A program made the translations under genes and the position numbers. Shown piece by piece: positions 34,211 through 44,865 of a DNA stretch of 64,000 nt (position 1 is the stretch's first letter; every line of letters begins with the position of its first letter). This DNA is from Candidatus Magasanikiibacteriota bacterium. GTDB lineage: Bacteria; Patescibacteriota; Patescibacteriia; Magasanikbacterales; GWA2-37-8. Below the pieces are notes generated by a model. The model was not told the DNA's origin. It did not search any database and saw nothing but the letters and a program-made list of their open reading frames with translations. The stretch covers positions 76,782-140,781 of the forward strand of contig JBAYGI010000003.1 of NCBI GenBank assembly GCA_041666745.1, written 5' to 3'.

Positions 34211-34231
34211 GAAAGTGTTTGAAAAAAAATG

Positions 34232-34305
34232 TGGGTGATAAAGGATTCGAACCTTTGGCCTCCTCGGTGTAAACGAGGCGCTCTAACCAACTGAGCTAAT
34301 CACCC
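34232..34305 (-). tRNA. tRNA-Val (anticodon UAC)
   Basis: Minus-strand read: GGGTGAT TA GCTC AGTTGGTTA GAGC G CCTCG TTTACAC CGAGG AGGCC AAAGG TTCGAAT CCTTT ATCACCC A. The 7-bp acceptor stem, D arm, anticodon loop with TAC at 34-36, GTTCGAAT T-loop and discriminator A are all present. 74 nt. No encoded CCA. Confidence 0.85.
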
Positions 34306-36261: not shown

Positions 36262-36427
36262 ATACTATTGGGTCTGTTTAATTTTACGCCTCGTAGATAT
36301 AAATTTTCTTGCGCTCAGACTTGTAGCGAATTTGTCGTTTAGCAGACAGCTAGTTTGGTTCTCGCTACTTCGGACAATTCGCGCGGCGAAAATTTTTATC
36401 TACTCGGCTATTAGTTTAGTCTTACTA

Positions 36428-36438
36428 ATTATAGCACA
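36428..36438 (-). promoter_or_regulatory. Extended -10 promoter element TGTGCTATAAT for the DMT transporter gene (leader of ~160 nt)
   Basis: Minus-strand read of 36438-36428 is TGTGCTATAAT, a perfect TATAAT with TGn. Confidence 0.45.
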
Positions 36439-36473
36439 AAAAAACGTCGCGATCTAATTGCGACGTTTTTTTT
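36438..36473. terminator. Bidirectional intrinsic terminator hairpin (A-run / 9-bp GC-rich stem / T-run)
   Basis: AAAAAAACGTCGC-gatctaatt-GCGACGTTTTTTT. It terminates the minus-strand transcript coming from the GC-rich island and the 36870 gene. Confidence 0.65.
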
Positions 36474-36516
36474 GATCCACATCCAATATTTACTTTTGGA
36501 AATAAACATTGGACGT

Positions 36517-36840
36517 GGAGAGTAGTGCGCAACTACCAACCCCACTCCCGATCAGCCAGTTAATGGCGATCGAACTTTGTGAACCGCGGTCAGCGCGGCC
36601 ACACCTCCTTCGCCGGCTTCTTGACGACCGGTGAAGATGGACGACGATCAGACGCCGGCGGATTCCACCGCGCTTCCTCGTCGTGTTGGAAAAGCTCCTC
36701 CTTGCCGCCACGGACCACAGTGGTCACAGGCGGCGGCGTGTTGTCTGGAGTGGGCCGCACGACAAATTTGACCTCGCAACTGACATCCTCAGTCATAGTG
36801 TCCTTCCTTGAAGAAATGGTGGTACTTAACGCACTACTCT
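36517..36840. other. 324-bp GC-rich island (~60% GC in a ~35% GC context) bounded by ~20-bp imperfect terminal inverted repeats; carries a 68-codon ORF
   Basis: Left GAGAGTAGTGCGCAACTACC (36517-36536). Right GGTACTTAACGCACTACTCTA (36820-36840). The 11-bp perfect core is AGAGTAGTGCG / CGCACTACTCT. Confidence 0.5.
36590..36796 (-). CDS. Hypothetical small Pro-rich protein (68 aa) encoded in the GC-rich island
   Basis: ATG preceded by AAGGAAGG at a 6-nt spacing (the strongest SD in the window). MTEDVSCEVKFVVRPTPDNTPPPVTTVVRGG.... Composition is atypical for this genome. Followed by the terminator at 36438-36473. Confidence 0.3.
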   Translation of the reverse strand: MTEDVSCEVKFVVRPTPDNTPPPVTTVVRGGKEELFQHDEEARWNPPASDRRPSSPVVKKPAKEVWPR

Positions 36841-36869
36841 AACAGTTTTGCATACTCTCAAACTATCAC

Positions 36870-38018
36870 CTAACTGTCAATAAAGTTATCCACACTAAAT
36901 CTCTTTTCCAGTTTTAAACCGGCCGAAGTGTAGCGATTGGATGCATTCCAAAGCAACCAGCCGGCATTGGGATATTTTTCTACCATATCTATCTCCGCGC
37001 GGATATTTTTTGCGCCGTAAACTGCCCCAATATTAAAAGCTTGCAACCACGGTCGCACTTGGGCACGTTTGTCCACAAACAACGGCGCGCCTTTTTTCAT
37101 TCCATTATCAATTACCTTTCCCGGGTTCGCTGCCGGATTGGATAAACCCAAATGTCCTTTGGCATAGTGCGACGGATACATCATCGGCGAAATAAAATCG
37201 ACCACATCTACCGCCGTATCAATTTTTTGACCAATACTCATACCGGTATTATTTTCCATCACCAATCCAAAAAAATCTACTGACGTGTAGGCCGGTTCAT
37301 CGTTGAGTTGTTCGGATAAAAATTTAAAAAAATCAGCCATCACCGCGTTGCGTTCAGTTGTTTTTGGAATTACCGCATTTGCCATATTGCCATCGGTAGG
37401 AAAACGTACATAATCAAAATTGATTTCGTCAAAACCCAACGCTATTACTTCTTTGGCAATGTCCATATTATATTGCCACAAATCTTGGCGCGCGCTATCT
37501 ACCCAAGATAAACCCTTTTTATCTTTCCAAATTCCACCCTTTTTATTCTTAATCGCCCACTCCGGTTTTTTTTCTGCCAAAATAGGATCTTGAAAAACTG
37601 TTTGGCGGGCAATCACATAAATACCGTGGGCGTGTAATTTTTTAATTAAATCCGGAATATTTTTCAAAACAACCCGCTTAGTTTTTAATTCTTTAACAAC
37701 CGGTATTTGGCTGTTGTATAAAATATAACCGGTATAATCTTTGATATCTATCACTACTGCATTGAGCTCGGTGGTGTCAATTAATTTAATAATCTCGTCA
37801 ATTTTTTTAGTATTATTGGCTGAATTAGCAGTCAGATATATTCCTTTGACAATTTGTTGAGGAACCTTTTCGCGGGGTGGCAAAACAACTTCAGATACAT
37901 CTGCGACCGCTTGCGCCTTCGGTAAAAAATGAGGGCAACAGAATACCACAAAAACAGTCAGCCAGGCCAATGGTAAACCAACAATCAATACTTTCCAAAA
38001 CTGTCCCCTTTTCTCCAT
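36870..38018 (-). CDS. Putative glycoside-hydrolase-like TIM-barrel protein (GHL/DUF4015-like), membrane-anchored
   Basis: 382 aa with an N-terminal TM. Motifs FDEINFDYVRFP and ISPMMYPSHY are as in GHL-family predicted glycosidases. Confidence 0.45.
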   Translation of the reverse strand: MEKRGQFWKVLIVGLPLAWLTVFVVFCCPHFLPKAQAVADVSEVVLPPREKVPQQIVKGIYLTANSANNTKKIDEIIKLIDTTELNAVVIDIKDYTGYILYNSQIPVVKELKTKRVVLKNIPDLIKKLHAHGIYVIARQTVFQDPILAEKKPEWAIKNKKGGIWKDKKGLSWVDSARQDLWQYNMDIAKEVIALGFDEINFDYVRFPTDGNMANAVIPKTTERNAVMADFFKFLSEQLNDEPAYTSVDFFGLVMENNTGMSIGQKIDTAVDVVDFISPMMYPSHYAKGHLGLSNPAANPGKVIDNGMKKGAPLFVDKRAQVRPWLQAFNIGAVYGAKNIRAEIDMVEKYPNAGWLLWNASNRYTSAGLKLEKRFSVDNFIDS

Positions 38019-39427: not shown

Positions 39428-40138
39428 TTATTTTTTAGCAGTGACGATTAAATTTCTGGCGCTTTTGTCATCCTTAGTGTTTTGTTCATCATCATAGAAC
39501 AAATTGATCTTTTTAAAACCGGTTTTTTGTAGAAGACTGTTTAATTCCTCTTTTGAAAAATGGTGATAGTATCGCTCGGAAACAATTTTGCCATCATTAT
39601 TTTTCCAAGGAACCATAAAATCATTATCCCCGATCTTTTGCCAATCTTTTTTTAACTTGCTTTGTGCCCAATCGGATTCCAGATTCCAAACGGTGATTAT
39701 TATCTGTCCGCCGGATTTCATCTCTTTGTAAACTTTTTTTAATAAATCTAGACGAGTTTTTTCATCCGGCAAATGATGGAACGAAGCGATCATAAAAACT
39801 AAATCGAAAAAATTGTCAGTAAATTTTTTATCGCGTGTGGCTGTTGAAAAAAAATTTACTTTACCGGACTCGATATCTACCGACCATTTTTTACGCGCAA
39901 TCTTTAACAATTCACCACTTTGATCCAACCCAAAATATTGGATTTTTTTATCTTTTAACAAAAATAATAGCCGTCCATTACCACAACCCCAATCCAAAAT
40001 ATTTTGACCGTCTTTAATTAATTTTTTAAACTGTTTCAGCTCATCCCAGAGATCAAAACGGGTACCTGAAAAACGTTCGGCAATGCGGTTGTAATCCTCG
40101 CGAGTTTTGTGTATAATGGCCTTTGAATCCATATGCAA
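39428..40138 (-). CDS. Class I SAM-dependent methyltransferase
   Basis: NILDWGCGNGRLLFLL (motif I) ... FDLVFMIASFHHL. 236 aa. Confidence 0.7.
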   Translation of the reverse strand: MHMDSKAIIHKTREDYNRIAERFSGTRFDLWDELKQFKKLIKDGQNILDWGCGNGRLLFLLKDKKIQYFGLDQSGELLKIARKKWSVDIESGKVNFFSTATRDKKFTDNFFDLVFMIASFHHLPDEKTRLDLLKKVYKEMKSGGQIIITVWNLESDWAQSKLKKDWQKIGDNDFMVPWKNNDGKIVSERYYHHFSKEELNSLLQKTGFKKINLFYDDEQNTKDDKSARNLIVTAKK

Positions 40139-41731
40139 ACAATTGAAGAAAAAATTATCCTAGACTGTTATAAAAAACAGCCCAAAGACGCGGAGGCGCT
40201 CAATAGTATTAAGCGTCGAATTTTACGTACCGAAAAACCCGGTTACATCCCTACTTCCACCCAACTGCTTAAAGCATATCACAAACTGGTCAAACAAAAC
40301 AAGATAAAGATTAGTCCACAGCTCGAAAAAAATCTTTTGCGCCGAGCCGTACGGACTTTGTCTGGGGTGACTATAGTGACGGCGCTCACCAAACCGTTTC
40401 CTTGCCCCGGACAGTGTGTCTACTGCCCTACCGAAGCCCGTATGCCCAAAAGCTACCTATCAGACGAACCAGCCGCGGCTCGAGCTTTGTCTTTGCAGTT
40501 TGATCCTTACGAACAGGTCGCTCGCCGTTTGGATAGTCTGGAAAAAAACGGACATCCGACCGACAAAATAGAACTGATTGTAAAAGGTGGCACTTGGAAC
40601 GCTTACCCAATAAAATATCAATACTGGTTTATCGCTCGTTGTTTTGAGGCTTGCAATCATACCAAAAAAACTATCGTATCCGAAAAAATGTCTTTGGAAG
40701 AACTGCGAAAAAAGATGATCAAAATTCAAGCTAAAAACGAACTGGCCAAACATCGAATTATTGGTTTGACTTTGGAAACCAGACCCGACTTCATCAATGA
40801 AAAAAATATTACTGACATGCGTAATCTGGGATGTACTCGCGTGGAAATGGGCATACAACATACTGATGAAAATATTTTGAAATTAACCAAACGTGGACAT
40901 GGAGTAAACGAATCCGTGCAAGCCAGCAAACTTTTACGAAAATATGGTTTTAAATTGGATTATCATCTCATGCCACAACTACCGGGGAGCACTCCCAAAA
41001 AAGACCTCAACATGTTACGTAAAATATTTTCCGATAGTCGTTTTCGTCCGGACATGATTAAAATTTATCCATGCACGGTCGTAGAAAATTCCGAACTATA
41101 TTCTTGGTTGGCTGAAAAAAAATTCAAACCGTATTCAGACAAACAATTATTAAAAATTCTCAAAGAATTTAAATCAGACGTGCCATATTATGTTCGAATT
41201 TCCCGTTTGATTCGAGATATCCCTTCCAATCATATTAAGGCGGGAAATATGATGACCAATTTGCGTCAAGTTATCCAAGCCGAAATGATCGCCGAAGGTA
41301 AAAAATGTTCATGTTTGCGCTGTCGAGAAATTGGACATCAAAAACCAATTGATTGGTCCAAAGAAAAAATAAAATTCTTTATCGATATATACGAATCCAG
41401 TGACGGCACCGAATATTTTTTAAGTTTTGAAAACACTAAACGCAGTGCAGTGTTGGGTTTTTGTCGTTTACGTATCGATAAAAATGGAATCTATCCGGCC
41501 TTTATACGCGAATTGCATATCTACGGACAATCACTTGAAATAGCCCAGAAAGAAAAAGGTGCCAGCCAGCACACCGGACTGGGTAAAAAACTGATGCAAG
41601 CGGCAATAAAAATTTGTAAACAAAATAAAATACCGCGCTTGGCAGTAATTTCCGGTGTTGGGGTGCGCGATTATTATCGTAAACTGGGAGCAAAGTTGGA
41701 AAATACTTATATGGTGTTTGACATTAAATAA
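40133..41731 (+). CDS. ELP3-family radical-SAM / GNAT acetyltransferase (bacterial Elongator-protein-3 homolog, tRNA-modification candidate)
   Basis: 532 aa. Radical-SAM CxxxCxxC is present as CPGQCVYCP. A C-terminal GNAT fold follows (GLGKKLMQAAIKICKQNKIPRLAVISGVGVRDYYRKLGA). Confidence 0.65.
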   Translation: MQTIEEKIILDCYKKQPKDAEALNSIKRRILRTEKPGYIPTSTQLLKAYHKLVKQNKIKISPQLEKNLLRRAVRTLSGVTIVTALTKPFPCPGQCVYCPTEARMPKSYLSDEPAAARALSLQFDPYEQVARRLDSLEKNGHPTDKIELIVKGGTWNAYPIKYQYWFIARCFEACNHTKKTIVSEKMSLEELRKKMIKIQAKNELAKHRIIGLTLETRPDFINEKNITDMRNLGCTRVEMGIQHTDENILKLTKRGHGVNESVQASKLLRKYGFKLDYHLMPQLPGSTPKKDLNMLRKIFSDSRFRPDMIKIYPCTVVENSELYSWLAEKKFKPYSDKQLLKILKEFKSDVPYYVRISRLIRDIPSNHIKAGNMMTNLRQVIQAEMIAEGKKCSCLRCREIGHQKPIDWSKEKIKFFIDIYESSDGTEYFLSFENTKRSAVLGFCRLRIDKNGIYPAFIRELHIYGQSLEIAQKEKGASQHTGLGKKLMQAAIKICKQNKIPRLAVISGVGVRDYYRKLGAKLENTYMVFDIK

Positions 41732-43425: not shown

Positions 43426-44865
43426 TTATTTTACATCACGTACTTCAAGTAGATTTATCGTTCCCGCCTCTCCTACTGGTTCCCCCGCCACCACAATCAC
43501 CTTATCTCCTTTTTTTACCAAATGTCTCTTTTTGATATAACTGACGGAATTTTCAACTAACTCCTCAATCGTACGACAAGGATGCAAAATGAACGGACGA
43601 ACTCCCCAAGATAAATTTAATTGACGTTGGACACGCTCACTCGTAGTGGCCACCACAATGTGAACATTGGGTCGAACACTACTGATCGATCTACCGGTAT
43701 CTCCAGAAATAGATGCCACCAAAATAGCTTTGGCTTTTACTTCTTCAGCCAAAACTCGTGATAAATTTGTAATAGCATTTTCCGAACTGACATTGCTTTC
43801 TTTAATAATCGGTATCAACATGTCATCGTAGTGAGATTTTTCAGTCGTAGCGATAATATCCGCCATAGTTTCCACTACCAATATTGGGTGTTCACCGACC
43901 GATGTTTCATTGGAGAGCATCACCGCATCGGCATGATCAATAACCGCGTTGGCCACATCAGACACCTCAGCGCGCGTAGGACGACGGCTGGAGCTCATAG
44001 AATCAAGCATCTGGGTCGCCACAATCACCGGCTTGGCGGCTTTATTGGCCGCTTCGATAATTCTTTTTTGCACCAAAGGTACTTCGGCCGCTCGAATCTC
44101 CACTCCCAAATCACCACGAGCCACCATTACACCATCGGCGGCGGCCAAAATTGATTCAATATTTTCGACAGCTTGCGGACGTTCGATTTTGGCAATAATT
44201 TGAATCGGATGTTCTGATTTCAAACCCAACTTGTCTTCGTATTCTTTAATCAAAAAACGGGTATCCAAAATATCTTCGGCGCGATTTACAAATGATATCG
44301 CTACCATATCCACTCCCATCTTTACACCAAAAAGTAAATCCTCTTTGTCTTTGATGGTCAATGAAGATAAAGAAATATTACTGTCAGGCAAATTCACTCC
44401 TTTGTGAGAAGTCAACAAACCACCTTCAACTACTTTGGCAAATATTTTACCATCGGCTAGTTTGTCAATTTTGGTTTCACAACGCCCGTCATTGATAAGC
44501 AATCTATCCCCCGGTTTCAAAAAATTATACAATTCCGGATGATTAAAAGGAATGGCGTCTTTTTTGTATTTATCAATCTTGGTATCAAAAATAATTTCTT
44601 GATCATCTGTTATCTCCACGCCCGCTTCCGGCATTTCTCCTATTCTAATTTTTGGACCTTGCAAGTCTTGTAAAATAATAATCGGTTCATCCATTTCTTT
44701 TTCCAACTCTCGAATATTGTTATAAATTTTTGTAAACTCGTCATAATTGCCGTGAGAAAAATTTAAACGAGCGCAATTCATACCGGCATGAACCATTTGT
44801 TTCAAAATCTCTTTGTCTTCGCAAGCCGGACCGATAGTAGCGACAATTTTGGTGTGTTTGTGCAT
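43426..44865 (-). CDS. pyk: Pyruvate kinase
   Basis: KIVATIGPACEDKEILKQMVHAGMNCARLNFSHGNYDE...MVARGDLGVEI. 479 aa. Confidence 0.9.
   Translation of the reverse strand: MHKHTKIVATIGPACEDKEILKQMVHAGMNCARLNFSHGNYDEFTKIYNNIRELEKEMDEPIIILQDLQGPKIRIGEMPEAGVEITDDQEIIFDTKIDKYKKDAIPFNHPELYNFLKPGDRLLINDGRCETKIDKLADGKIFAKVVEGGLLTSHKGVNLPDSNISLSSLTIKDKEDLLFGVKMGVDMVAISFVNRAEDILDTRFLIKEYEDKLGLKSEHPIQIIAKIERPQAVENIESILAAADGVMVARGDLGVEIRAAEVPLVQKRIIEAANKAAKPVIVATQMLDSMSSSRRPTRAEVSDVANAVIDHADAVMLSNETSVGEHPILVVETMADIIATTEKSHYDDMLIPIIKESNVSSENAITNLSRVLAEEVKAKAILVASISGDTGRSISSVRPNVHIVVATTSERVQRQLNLSWGVRPFILHPCRTIEELVENSVSYIKKRHLVKKGDKVIVVAGEPVGEAGTINLLEVRDVK

Follow-up and report, generated by a model that had tools for sequence, protein, structure and literature searches.

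A probable small-protein gene in a GC-rich island of a Magasanikbacteria contig and the predicted pairing between its 5' and 3' untranslated regions

A GC-rich island is described here from a 64,000-nucleotide stretch of the Candidatus Magasanikiibacteriota contig JBAYGI010000003.1 (assembly GCA_041666745.1); the whole of this stretch is called the window. The contig is metagenomic and 144 kb long, and neighbouring genes assign it to Candidatus Magasanikbacteria, in the Patescibacteria (candidate phyla radiation). The island (positions 36517-36840) lies between a gene for a DUF4015 protein and a gene for an EamA transporter. On the minus strand it carries a small open reading frame (ORF) with a strong Shine-Dalgarno (SD) site, flanked by untranslated regions (UTRs) whose ends are complementary and are predicted to pair in the messenger RNA.

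The GC-rich island and its features

The GC content of the island is 0.58, compared with a mean of 0.375 (standard deviation 0.054) over the window, and the highest-GC 200-nt segment of the whole 64 kb falls inside it (36564-36763; GC 0.645, z = 5.0). The jump in composition reported in the initial annotation is therefore real, and so is the AT-rich background, with the correction that its GC content is 37.5% and not the roughly 35% given there. An 11-nt inverted repeat with 100% complementarity delimits the island (AGAGTAGTGCG at 36519-36529 and CGCACTACTCT at 36830-36840), in agreement with the perfect outer 11 bp noticed earlier, and the proposed repeat length of about 20 bp is reached with 5-7 more pairs past an internal loop. 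No further copy of the repeat termini with at most one mismatch occurs in the window (0.32 expected by chance), so the additional copies that a mobile element might have left were not found. The same arrangement is kept in seven other loci, indicating that it did not arise by chance. The 68-codon, proline-rich ORF of the initial annotation was recovered as well, and so was its bidirectional terminator, which has a 16-bp stem (36438-36453 / 36457-36472) flanked by an A-run and, at its opposite end, a T-run. The two arms of the inverted repeat form the predicted closing helix, P1. The features of the unit are listed below in minus-strand order.

36875-36880, minus strand: putative -35 element TTGACA, overlapping the last DUF4015 codons, at the same position in 7 of 7 covering loci
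36852-36860, minus strand: putative extended -10 element (TGA + GAGTAT), 17 nt past the -35, in a TTGACA-N14-TGn-hexamer pattern
36830-36840, minus strand: 5' arm of P1, AGAGUAGUGCG, half of the 11-nt perfect inverted repeat
36802-36815, minus strand: small hairpin of the SD AAGGAAGG (36802-36809) and the anti-SD UCUUC (36810-36815), predicted fold
36590-36796, minus strand: coding sequence (CDS) of a 68-aa Pro/Ser/Thr/Arg-rich protein, GenBank hypothetical protein WCT11_02365
36550-36571, minus strand: small 3'-UTR hairpin GAUCGCC...GGCUGAUC, predicted from the alignment, with pairs that change in a compensatory way between loci
36530-36549, minus strand: near-invariant 3' box GGGAGUGGGGUUGGUAGUUG; predicted partner, C-rich sequence in the 5' UTR
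36519-36529, minus strand: 3' arm of P1, CGCACUACUCU, then an invariant CCA; invariant in eight loci
36477-36518, minus strand: AU-rich hairpin of about 19 bp, CCACGUCCAAU...AUUGGAUGUGG, directly after P1, predicted fold in 8 of 8 loci
36438-36472, both strands: intrinsic terminator, bidirectional in form, a 16-bp inverted repeat whose stem covaries among loci

The next GC peaks of the window (40339-40538 and 43945-44144; 0.57, z = 3.6) sit within long ORFs. The first is held by an ORF of 532 aa at 40133-41731 (+), whose L001 counterpart is a radical-SAM protein of equal length, and the second by an ORF of 479 aa at 43426-44865 (-); neither peak is comparable to the island.

Relatives, coding character and codon choice of the small gene

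A homologous unit was found at seven further loci, all on Magasanikbacteria-type metagenome contigs, giving eight with the window. The upstream DUF4015 protein is encoded at 80 loci of GTDB genomes that were searched, and one of these, L002, has the unit. Scanning metagenomes with the conserved 3' motif yielded L082-L085, and protein searches led to L086, L087 and L088. Since L082 and L086 hold the same ORF they were counted as one locus, for which L086 supplies the full-length element. Gene order is identical in all eight copies, namely glycosyltransferase (GT4), DUF4015 protein, unit, EamA transporter and glycoside hydrolase (GH), with the unit always at this place and facing the same way. 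Identity to the window's counterparts is 69-86% for the flanking proteins; the small protein is only about 25-45% identical between loci. A tRNA-Val gene (anticodon TAC; 34231-34305, minus strand) is the sole Rfam or ARAGORN match in the window, and tRNAs at the matching downstream position in L002 and L086 confirm that the synteny extends further.

A profile search of 1.84 billion representative proteins returned only five true member clusters, and a word-indexed search of 5.8 billion proteins returned five proteins, all belonging to these loci; the family is therefore very narrow. Protein homologues thus do exist, as the initial annotation had left to be checked, and among the 1.84 and 5.8 billion proteins searched none lies outside this Magasanikbacteria clade. 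At the DNA level, nhmmer and fuzzy-motif searches of the 80 DUF4015 loci of GTDB genomes gave L002 as the sole homologue, and the GC peaks at other DUF4015 loci of the set do not carry the conserved 3' motif. Each of the loci found in which DUF4015 adjoins EamA has the unit; the other 79 Patescibacteria loci lack this adjacency and so offer no empty site for comparison. A scan of viral contigs with the 3' box gave zero matches.

The protein has 68 aa in the window, where it includes the peptides FVVRPTPDNTPPPVTTVVR and WNPPASDR, and 75-95 aa in its relatives; in GenBank the window's ORF is listed as 'hypothetical protein WCT11_02365'. GC-rich DNA readily yields long open frames, and several frames are open in individual loci. 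Six-frame translation of six loci showed that the ORF frame alone is open in every one of them, and the frames of L087 and L088 were recovered besides as called ORFs. Motifs common to the aligned translations are PP(P).T.V, G.EE.F, RW, RRPSS and a C-terminal VWP[TRS], and the sequences fall into two protein subfamilies. Within the subfamilies, the BLOSUM scores of the ORF frame exceed those of the best other frame (81 versus 59, 80 versus 61, 90 versus 71, 101 versus 44 and 89 versus 76). In the close trio L086/L087/L088, differences at codon positions 1, 2 and 3 amount to 23/15/30, 26/16/40 and 28/23/40, and dN/dS, the ratio of nonsynonymous to synonymous substitution rates, is 0.37-0.53. Position 2 is the least and position 3 the most changed, a pattern expected of the sense frame only. 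Judged from these alignments, the ORF is probably a genuine gene on which purifying selection acts weakly. An antisense ORF of 87 aa (36579-36842, plus strand, GTG start), which is longer than the small gene itself, was rejected because stop codons break it up in the relatives; it is a by-product of GC-richness.

The protein is hydrophilic, rich in Pro, Ser, Thr and Arg, and has no hydrophobic segment. It is predicted to be disordered, the AlphaFold2 model having no secondary structure, a predicted local distance difference test (pLDDT) score of 64 and a predicted template modelling (pTM) score of 0.15. No family match was found for it in Pfam, NCBIfam, PHROGs, PADLOC or PDB sequences.

Codon choice is atypical too. 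The GC content of third codon positions (GC3) is 0.62-0.84 in all eight ORFs (0.69 in the window) versus 0.35-0.40 in four flanking genes, and the codon adaptation index (CAI) of the window ORF is 0.459 versus 0.690 ± 0.025 for 39 reference ORFs (z = -9), in keeping with the foreign look stressed in the initial annotation. Recoding of the ORF with the genome's usual codons gave a GC3 of 0.33 and a total GC of 0.49, against the observed 0.69 and 0.62, indicating that the island is due about half to amino-acid composition and for the remainder to codon choice. Synonymous sites are near saturation between loci (proportion of synonymous differences 0.44-0.75). Because GC3 is high everywhere despite this, the GC-rich bias looks like one upheld by selection and not like a remnant of recent transfer.

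The dinucleotide-shuffle fold z-score of the unit is -8.5, a value driven by perfect hairpins and GC content. Native sequences are no stabler than synonymous shuffles in which protein and codon composition were held constant, indicating that GC-richness and not a specific fold is conserved in the coding part. In the alignment fold of the close trio, the 63 CDS-CDS pairs comprise 28 invariant, 6 one-sided, 3 compensatory and 26 broken ones, and the 41 pairs within the 5' UTR comprise 35 invariant, 4 one-sided, 1 compensatory and 1 broken. Together with the synonymous shuffles, the 26 broken pairs led to rejection of a conserved RNA structure of the interior. Rfam 15 at gathering score gave no match in the window beyond the tRNA, and hence none for the unit on either strand; at E <= 10 only chance-level, terminator-driven matches appeared within 36300-37000, five relatives gave tRNA only, and ARAGORN detected no transfer-messenger RNA (tmRNA).

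The untranslated regions and the transcript

The motif AAGGAAGG stands 5 nt before the ATG, and its duplex with a generic anti-SD has an energy of -7.4 kcal/mol. Among 41 window ORFs of at least 150 aa, the best value is -5.6 and the median +0.4 kcal/mol; the first ATG was taken as the start in this scoring, so individual values may be off. The exceptional ribosome-binding site claimed in the initial annotation is borne out, since its energy surpasses that of all 41 ORFs, and this genome appears to use almost no SD sites. A literature search on SD usage in Patescibacteria gave nothing relevant. An SD-like purine run followed by ATG occurs in 8 of 8 loci and is strong in subfamily 1: its forms are GGAAGGAG(G) in four loci, AAGGAAGG in the window, GGAG in L085 and L002, and GGGG in L084, with L002 and L084 having the weaker runs. 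Relatives of the small ORF also carry GGAAGGAGG as SD. In the predicted folds the SD is paired in all loci; the unpaired probability of SD bases is 0.05-0.14. Hairpins equivalent to that of the window are CUUCC-N4-GGAAG in L083, L086, L087 and L088 and CUCC-GCA-GGAG in L085, whereas the SD of subfamily 2 is predicted to pair with sequence downstream of it.

Neither arm of P1 overlaps the ORF; the first is found at the start of the 5' UTR and the second in the 3' UTR. The 3' arm is unchanged in 8 of 8 loci, and the seven loci whose sequence covers the 5' arm differ in it at position 10 only, with C in three and U in four. This C or U faces an invariant G, which makes a G-C or G.U pair on the minus strand and would make a C.A mismatch on the plus strand, and thereby fixes the strand. 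Such wobble variation on one strand favours pairing of RNA over a symmetrical DNA site. The folding energy of the minus strand is 24 kcal/mol better than that of the plus strand, and partition-function folding of full units gave a mean pairing probability for P1 of 0.84-0.98 in all seven complete loci. The inverted repeat is predicted to behave as an RNA helix closing the minus-strand mRNA. The initial annotation had offered, as an alternative to a mobile cassette, a long-range closing stem of a GC-rich structured RNA; the stem is supported, but a conserved structured RNA is not, the interior being probably coding and devoid of conserved pairing.

Directly 5' of the 3' arm stands GGGGUUGGUAGUUG, which with the arm and CCA makes a 28-nt stretch in which the eight loci differ at only two positions. 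The core of the box, the 3' arm and CCA together read GGGGUUGGUAGUUGCGCACUACUCUCCA. In every locus the predicted partner of the 3' box GGGGUUGGUAG is C-rich sequence of the 5' UTR, although the stretch used is not the same in all of them, and in the window the box is also predicted to pair with CCCACUCC within the coding sequence. The box of L088 has a U-to-C change that turns a G.U pair into G-C. Further downstream, 19 of the 47 predicted pairs of the 3' region (small hairpin, AU-rich hairpin and terminator) show compensatory changes. The AU-rich hairpin is kept in 8 of 8 loci, with changes such as CCAC/GUGG to CCAA/UUGG. The CCA after the 3' arm (36517-36519 in the window) is invariant in 8 of 8 loci, and the rest of the hairpin that follows covaries. 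A long helix with CCA resembles a minihelix substrate of RNase P, which could matter where a leader needs removal.

A promoter-like TTGACA-N14-TGn-hexamer overlaps the DUF4015 stop codon in all seven loci that include the region, with GAATAT, AATAAT, CAAAAT, GAACAT and GAGTAT as -10 hexamers. This putative promoter was not picked up by a consensus scan, and conservation of its -35 part may equally stem from the DUF4015 codons that it overlaps. The transcript would start 3-5 nt before the 5' arm of P1 in the window. Directly past the terminator of the unit stands a conserved TGTGnTATAAT, presumably the promoter of EamA, and the unit therefore seems to be transcribed on its own.

In six relatives, a conserved leader of about 175 nt intervenes between promoter and P1 (L002:5210-5405, L084:6469-6671, L085:993-1187 on the minus strand, L086:2793-2989, L087:889-1086 and L088:2294-2489). 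It is built of three stems and a terminator hairpin (AUCACCCUGG...UUAGGGUGAUUUU), the 5' half of which could instead pair with an upstream GGGUGA as a possible antiterminator; in L084 the register is shifted and the complementarity kept. The window has a clean deletion of the leader, between about 36841 and 36851. The leader has no match in Rfam. It is a candidate attenuator or riboswitch-like element, or else a separate small RNA. Two further roles were rejected: as a widespread regulatory RNA, because its covariance model R1 matches only this locus in 709 kb, and as a trans-antisense partner of the mRNA, because its duplex energies are no better than those of shuffled controls (z -1.6 to +0.5).

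The 5' UTR of EamA in the window contains another element (36288-36408), placed between the EamA promoter and start codon and made of a 79-nt core with 21-nt imperfect inverted repeats (GCCTCGTAGATATAAATTTTC / GAAAATTTTTATCTACTCGGC). It has the same orientation in L085; in L087 (1676-1792) the whole element is inverted relative to EamA; and it is absent from L002, L083, L084, L086 and L088, whose EamA 5' UTRs are 14-50 nt long. No second copy occurs within the window. Being patchy and variable in orientation, it looks like a miniature inverted-repeat transposable element (MITE) or an invertible segment. At this locus, it is this element and not the GC island that looks like a repeat-bounded mobile element.

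Interpretation and comparison with known systems

From the homology, synteny, coding signature, P1 conservation and wobble, covariation of the UTR hairpins, lack of conserved CDS pairing and atypical codons computed here, it is rather likely that the island is a fast-evolving small-protein gene of a narrow Magasanikbacteria group whose mRNA is closed by pairing of its 5' and 3' UTRs. The unit would be an independent minus-strand transcription unit of about 410 nt. The first 11 nt of the mRNA would pair with 11 nt of the 3' UTR to form P1, and the adjacent 3' box GGGGUUGGUAG with a C-rich stretch of the 5' UTR, so that the whole coding region would be enclosed by one closing helix. Within it, the strong SD may be held in a small hairpin by the local anti-SD; the long AU-rich hairpin and then the intrinsic terminator would finish the message. 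Closure of the UTRs would bury the 5' end of the mRNA. The GC-rich codon choice would make the body of the message generally compact, and closure and compact body together may protect it against RNases of the end-dependent and AU-directed kinds. Translation initiation may in addition be kept low or conditional by closure and the SD hairpin.

Several points weigh against this account. The variation of P1 is one-sided, by wobble, with zero double compensatory changes, and the invariance of its arms would fit a protein-binding or DNA site too. The strict conservation of 31 nt exceeds the need of simple end pairing. Transcript ends and promoter of the unit are deduced from sequence features. In the small protein, the frame-specific signal is lost between the two subfamilies, and the comparison covers eight sequences only, from close relatives, with protein-guided alignments for dN/dS. 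Synonymous shuffling gave z-scores of 0.08, -0.35 and -0.46 for L086-L088 and of -1.98 for the window, and any purpose assigned to the GC-richness that is kept is a guess.

It is not very likely that the RNA itself is the main product, that is, a riboregulator or dual-function RNA of the RNAIII, SR1 or SgrS type, with an ORF that is secondary or only occasionally translated and a 3' box or G-rich and C-rich UTR segments that contact another RNA or a protein. The non-coding 5' arm and 31-nt 3' box are indeed the most conserved parts, with a protein only 25-45% identical, and the box is conserved beyond the needs of pairing. The fold z-score of -8.5 would suit such an RNA, and so would GC-rich synonymous sites kept against the genome bias, as in structural RNA genes of AT-rich genomes. 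Against it stand the 26 of 63 CDS-CDS pairs broken in the close trio, native sequences that are no stabler than their synonymous shuffles, the coding signature, the lack of an Rfam match on either strand and the fact that no target or seed region was identified. Dual-function RNAs are exemplified by RNAIII/hld of S. aureus, SR1/SR1P of B. subtilis and SgrS/SgrT. The likeness lies in a structured RNA of several hundred nt with a small conserved ORF and non-coding parts more conserved than the peptide; the unit differs in the missing target or seed and in an ORF-internal structure that is not conserved.

Still less likely is a folding- or processing-dependent lock formed by the near-invariant 5' arm and 31-nt 3' box, which would do more than stabilise the message: it would be a new RNA switch timing the translation of the one ORF with a strong SD in a bacterium otherwise poor in SD sites, with GC-rich synonymous sites selected at the RNA level in a dual-function or toxin-like RNA of a new family. 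In such a lock the 3' arm would have two alternative partners, the 5' end and a sequence inside the box that mimics it. The closing helix and the invariant CCA would constitute a minihelix-CCA of the kind recognised by RNase P, and a terminator-containing leader precedes it in the relatives.

A locked mRNA in the manner of type I toxins such as hok and aapA1 is quite improbable. Its full-length form would be inert, and 3' processing, for instance at the long AU-rich hairpin, or refolding into an alternative local 3' hairpin would free a translatable form of a harmful protein. There is precedent in aapA1, whose full-length transcript impedes its own translation until 3' processing and structural rearrangement activate it (PMC5416894), and comparably in hok/Sok, where the hok mRNA is kept inert by a long-distance interaction until 3' processing (PMC9841398). 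The predicted folds of the unit share the long-distance 5'-3' pairing, the sequestered SD and the small ORF, and perhaps metastable 3' structures (PMC5416894, PMC6733600, PMC9841398). The 3' box can form a hairpin of its own (GUGGGG..GGUAGU / ACUACU..CUCCAC, -12.4 kcal/mol), competing with P1 and the next hairpin, and its participation in two alternative structures would explain its invariance; the probability of this local hairpin is, however, about 0 at equilibrium. The product differs from known type I toxins, which are small hydrophobic peptides: it is hydrophilic, Pro-rich and predicted to be disordered, no hydrophobic segment was seen in the 68-aa sequence, and it has no PADLOC or Pfam match. 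Neither a conserved antisense promoter nor an antitoxin RNA was seen at the locus, and complementarity of the leader to the mRNA is not above that of shuffled controls (z -1.6 to +0.5).

The miniature mobile element or recently acquired foreign cassette with terminal inverted repeats, favoured by the initial annotation, is highly improbable: the GC content of 0.58-0.65 in a background of 0.375, a CAI 9 standard deviations below the genome's genes, the 11-bp perfect inverted repeat and the tiny clade-restricted family would fit it, but the unit is single-copy within the window, with none of the dispersed copies there that would be expected of a MITE, occupies one slot in one orientation with one copy in each of the eight loci, lacks a target-site duplication (flanks AACTGTT/AGAGTAG... 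and ...ACTCT/CCACGTC, with no direct repeat), has arms that vary in RNA fashion from G-C to G.U, keeps its GC-rich codons at near-saturated synonymous sites, and has no homologue in GC-rich organisms among the 1.84 billion representative proteins and no match in viral contigs or PHROGs.

If the small-protein gene with a UTR-closed mRNA is the correct reading, an uncultivated bacterium of the candidate phyla radiation (CPR) would have an mRNA with a conserved end-to-end helix, and an inverted-repeat-bounded GC island in an AT-rich genome need be neither a mobile element nor a non-coding RNA. It would also pose two small evolutionary puzzles: in several species whose genomes have about 37% GC, a protein gene keeps a GC3 of 0.62-0.84, and this gene is the sole one with a strong SD in 64 kb of a genome that otherwise apparently does not use SD sites. 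The unit has sequence traits of the class of mRNAs with 5'/3'-UTR pairing: complementary segments are present outside the ORF, the promoter-like site and the terminator point to one transcript, and the predicted pairing is maintained in loci whose coding parts are 25-45% identical, with arms invariant save for the C/U opposite G. The principle of such pairing is already known, and the architecture found here is unusual but adds no new principle.

Two mRNAs of Firmicutes are among the closest comparisons. In B. subtilis, the hbs mRNA, which encodes a small protein and has a strong SD, contains a 14-bp interaction of its 5' and 3' UTRs that modulates cleavage by RNase Y; this interaction restricts attack by RNases and links the stability of the mRNA to translation initiation (PMC5737220). 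The present unit, with 11 bp and an extension, would be a functional analogue and not a homologue, there being no sequence homology. It differs further in that the pairing begins at or a few nt from the presumed 5' end and would enclose the entire message, in that the coding region is strongly GC-enriched relative to the genome, and in that the host genome appears to be almost without other SD sites. In S. aureus, the icaR mRNA is controlled by 5'/3'-UTR pairing in which an anti-SD motif of the 3' UTR pairs with the SD of the 5' UTR (PMC3868564). The icaR mRNA and the unit have in common a cis-acting interaction of the two UTRs within one mRNA that affects translation (predicted for the unit) and a long duplex that is a possible substrate of RNase III. 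The 3' UTR of icaR pairs with the SD directly, whereas here a local upstream anti-SD is predicted to hold the SD and the 3' box to pair with other C-rich segments of the 5' UTR. If the reading is correct, a mechanism of a few Firmicutes and toxin mRNAs (hbs, icaR, hok/aapA1) would extend to a very different lineage.

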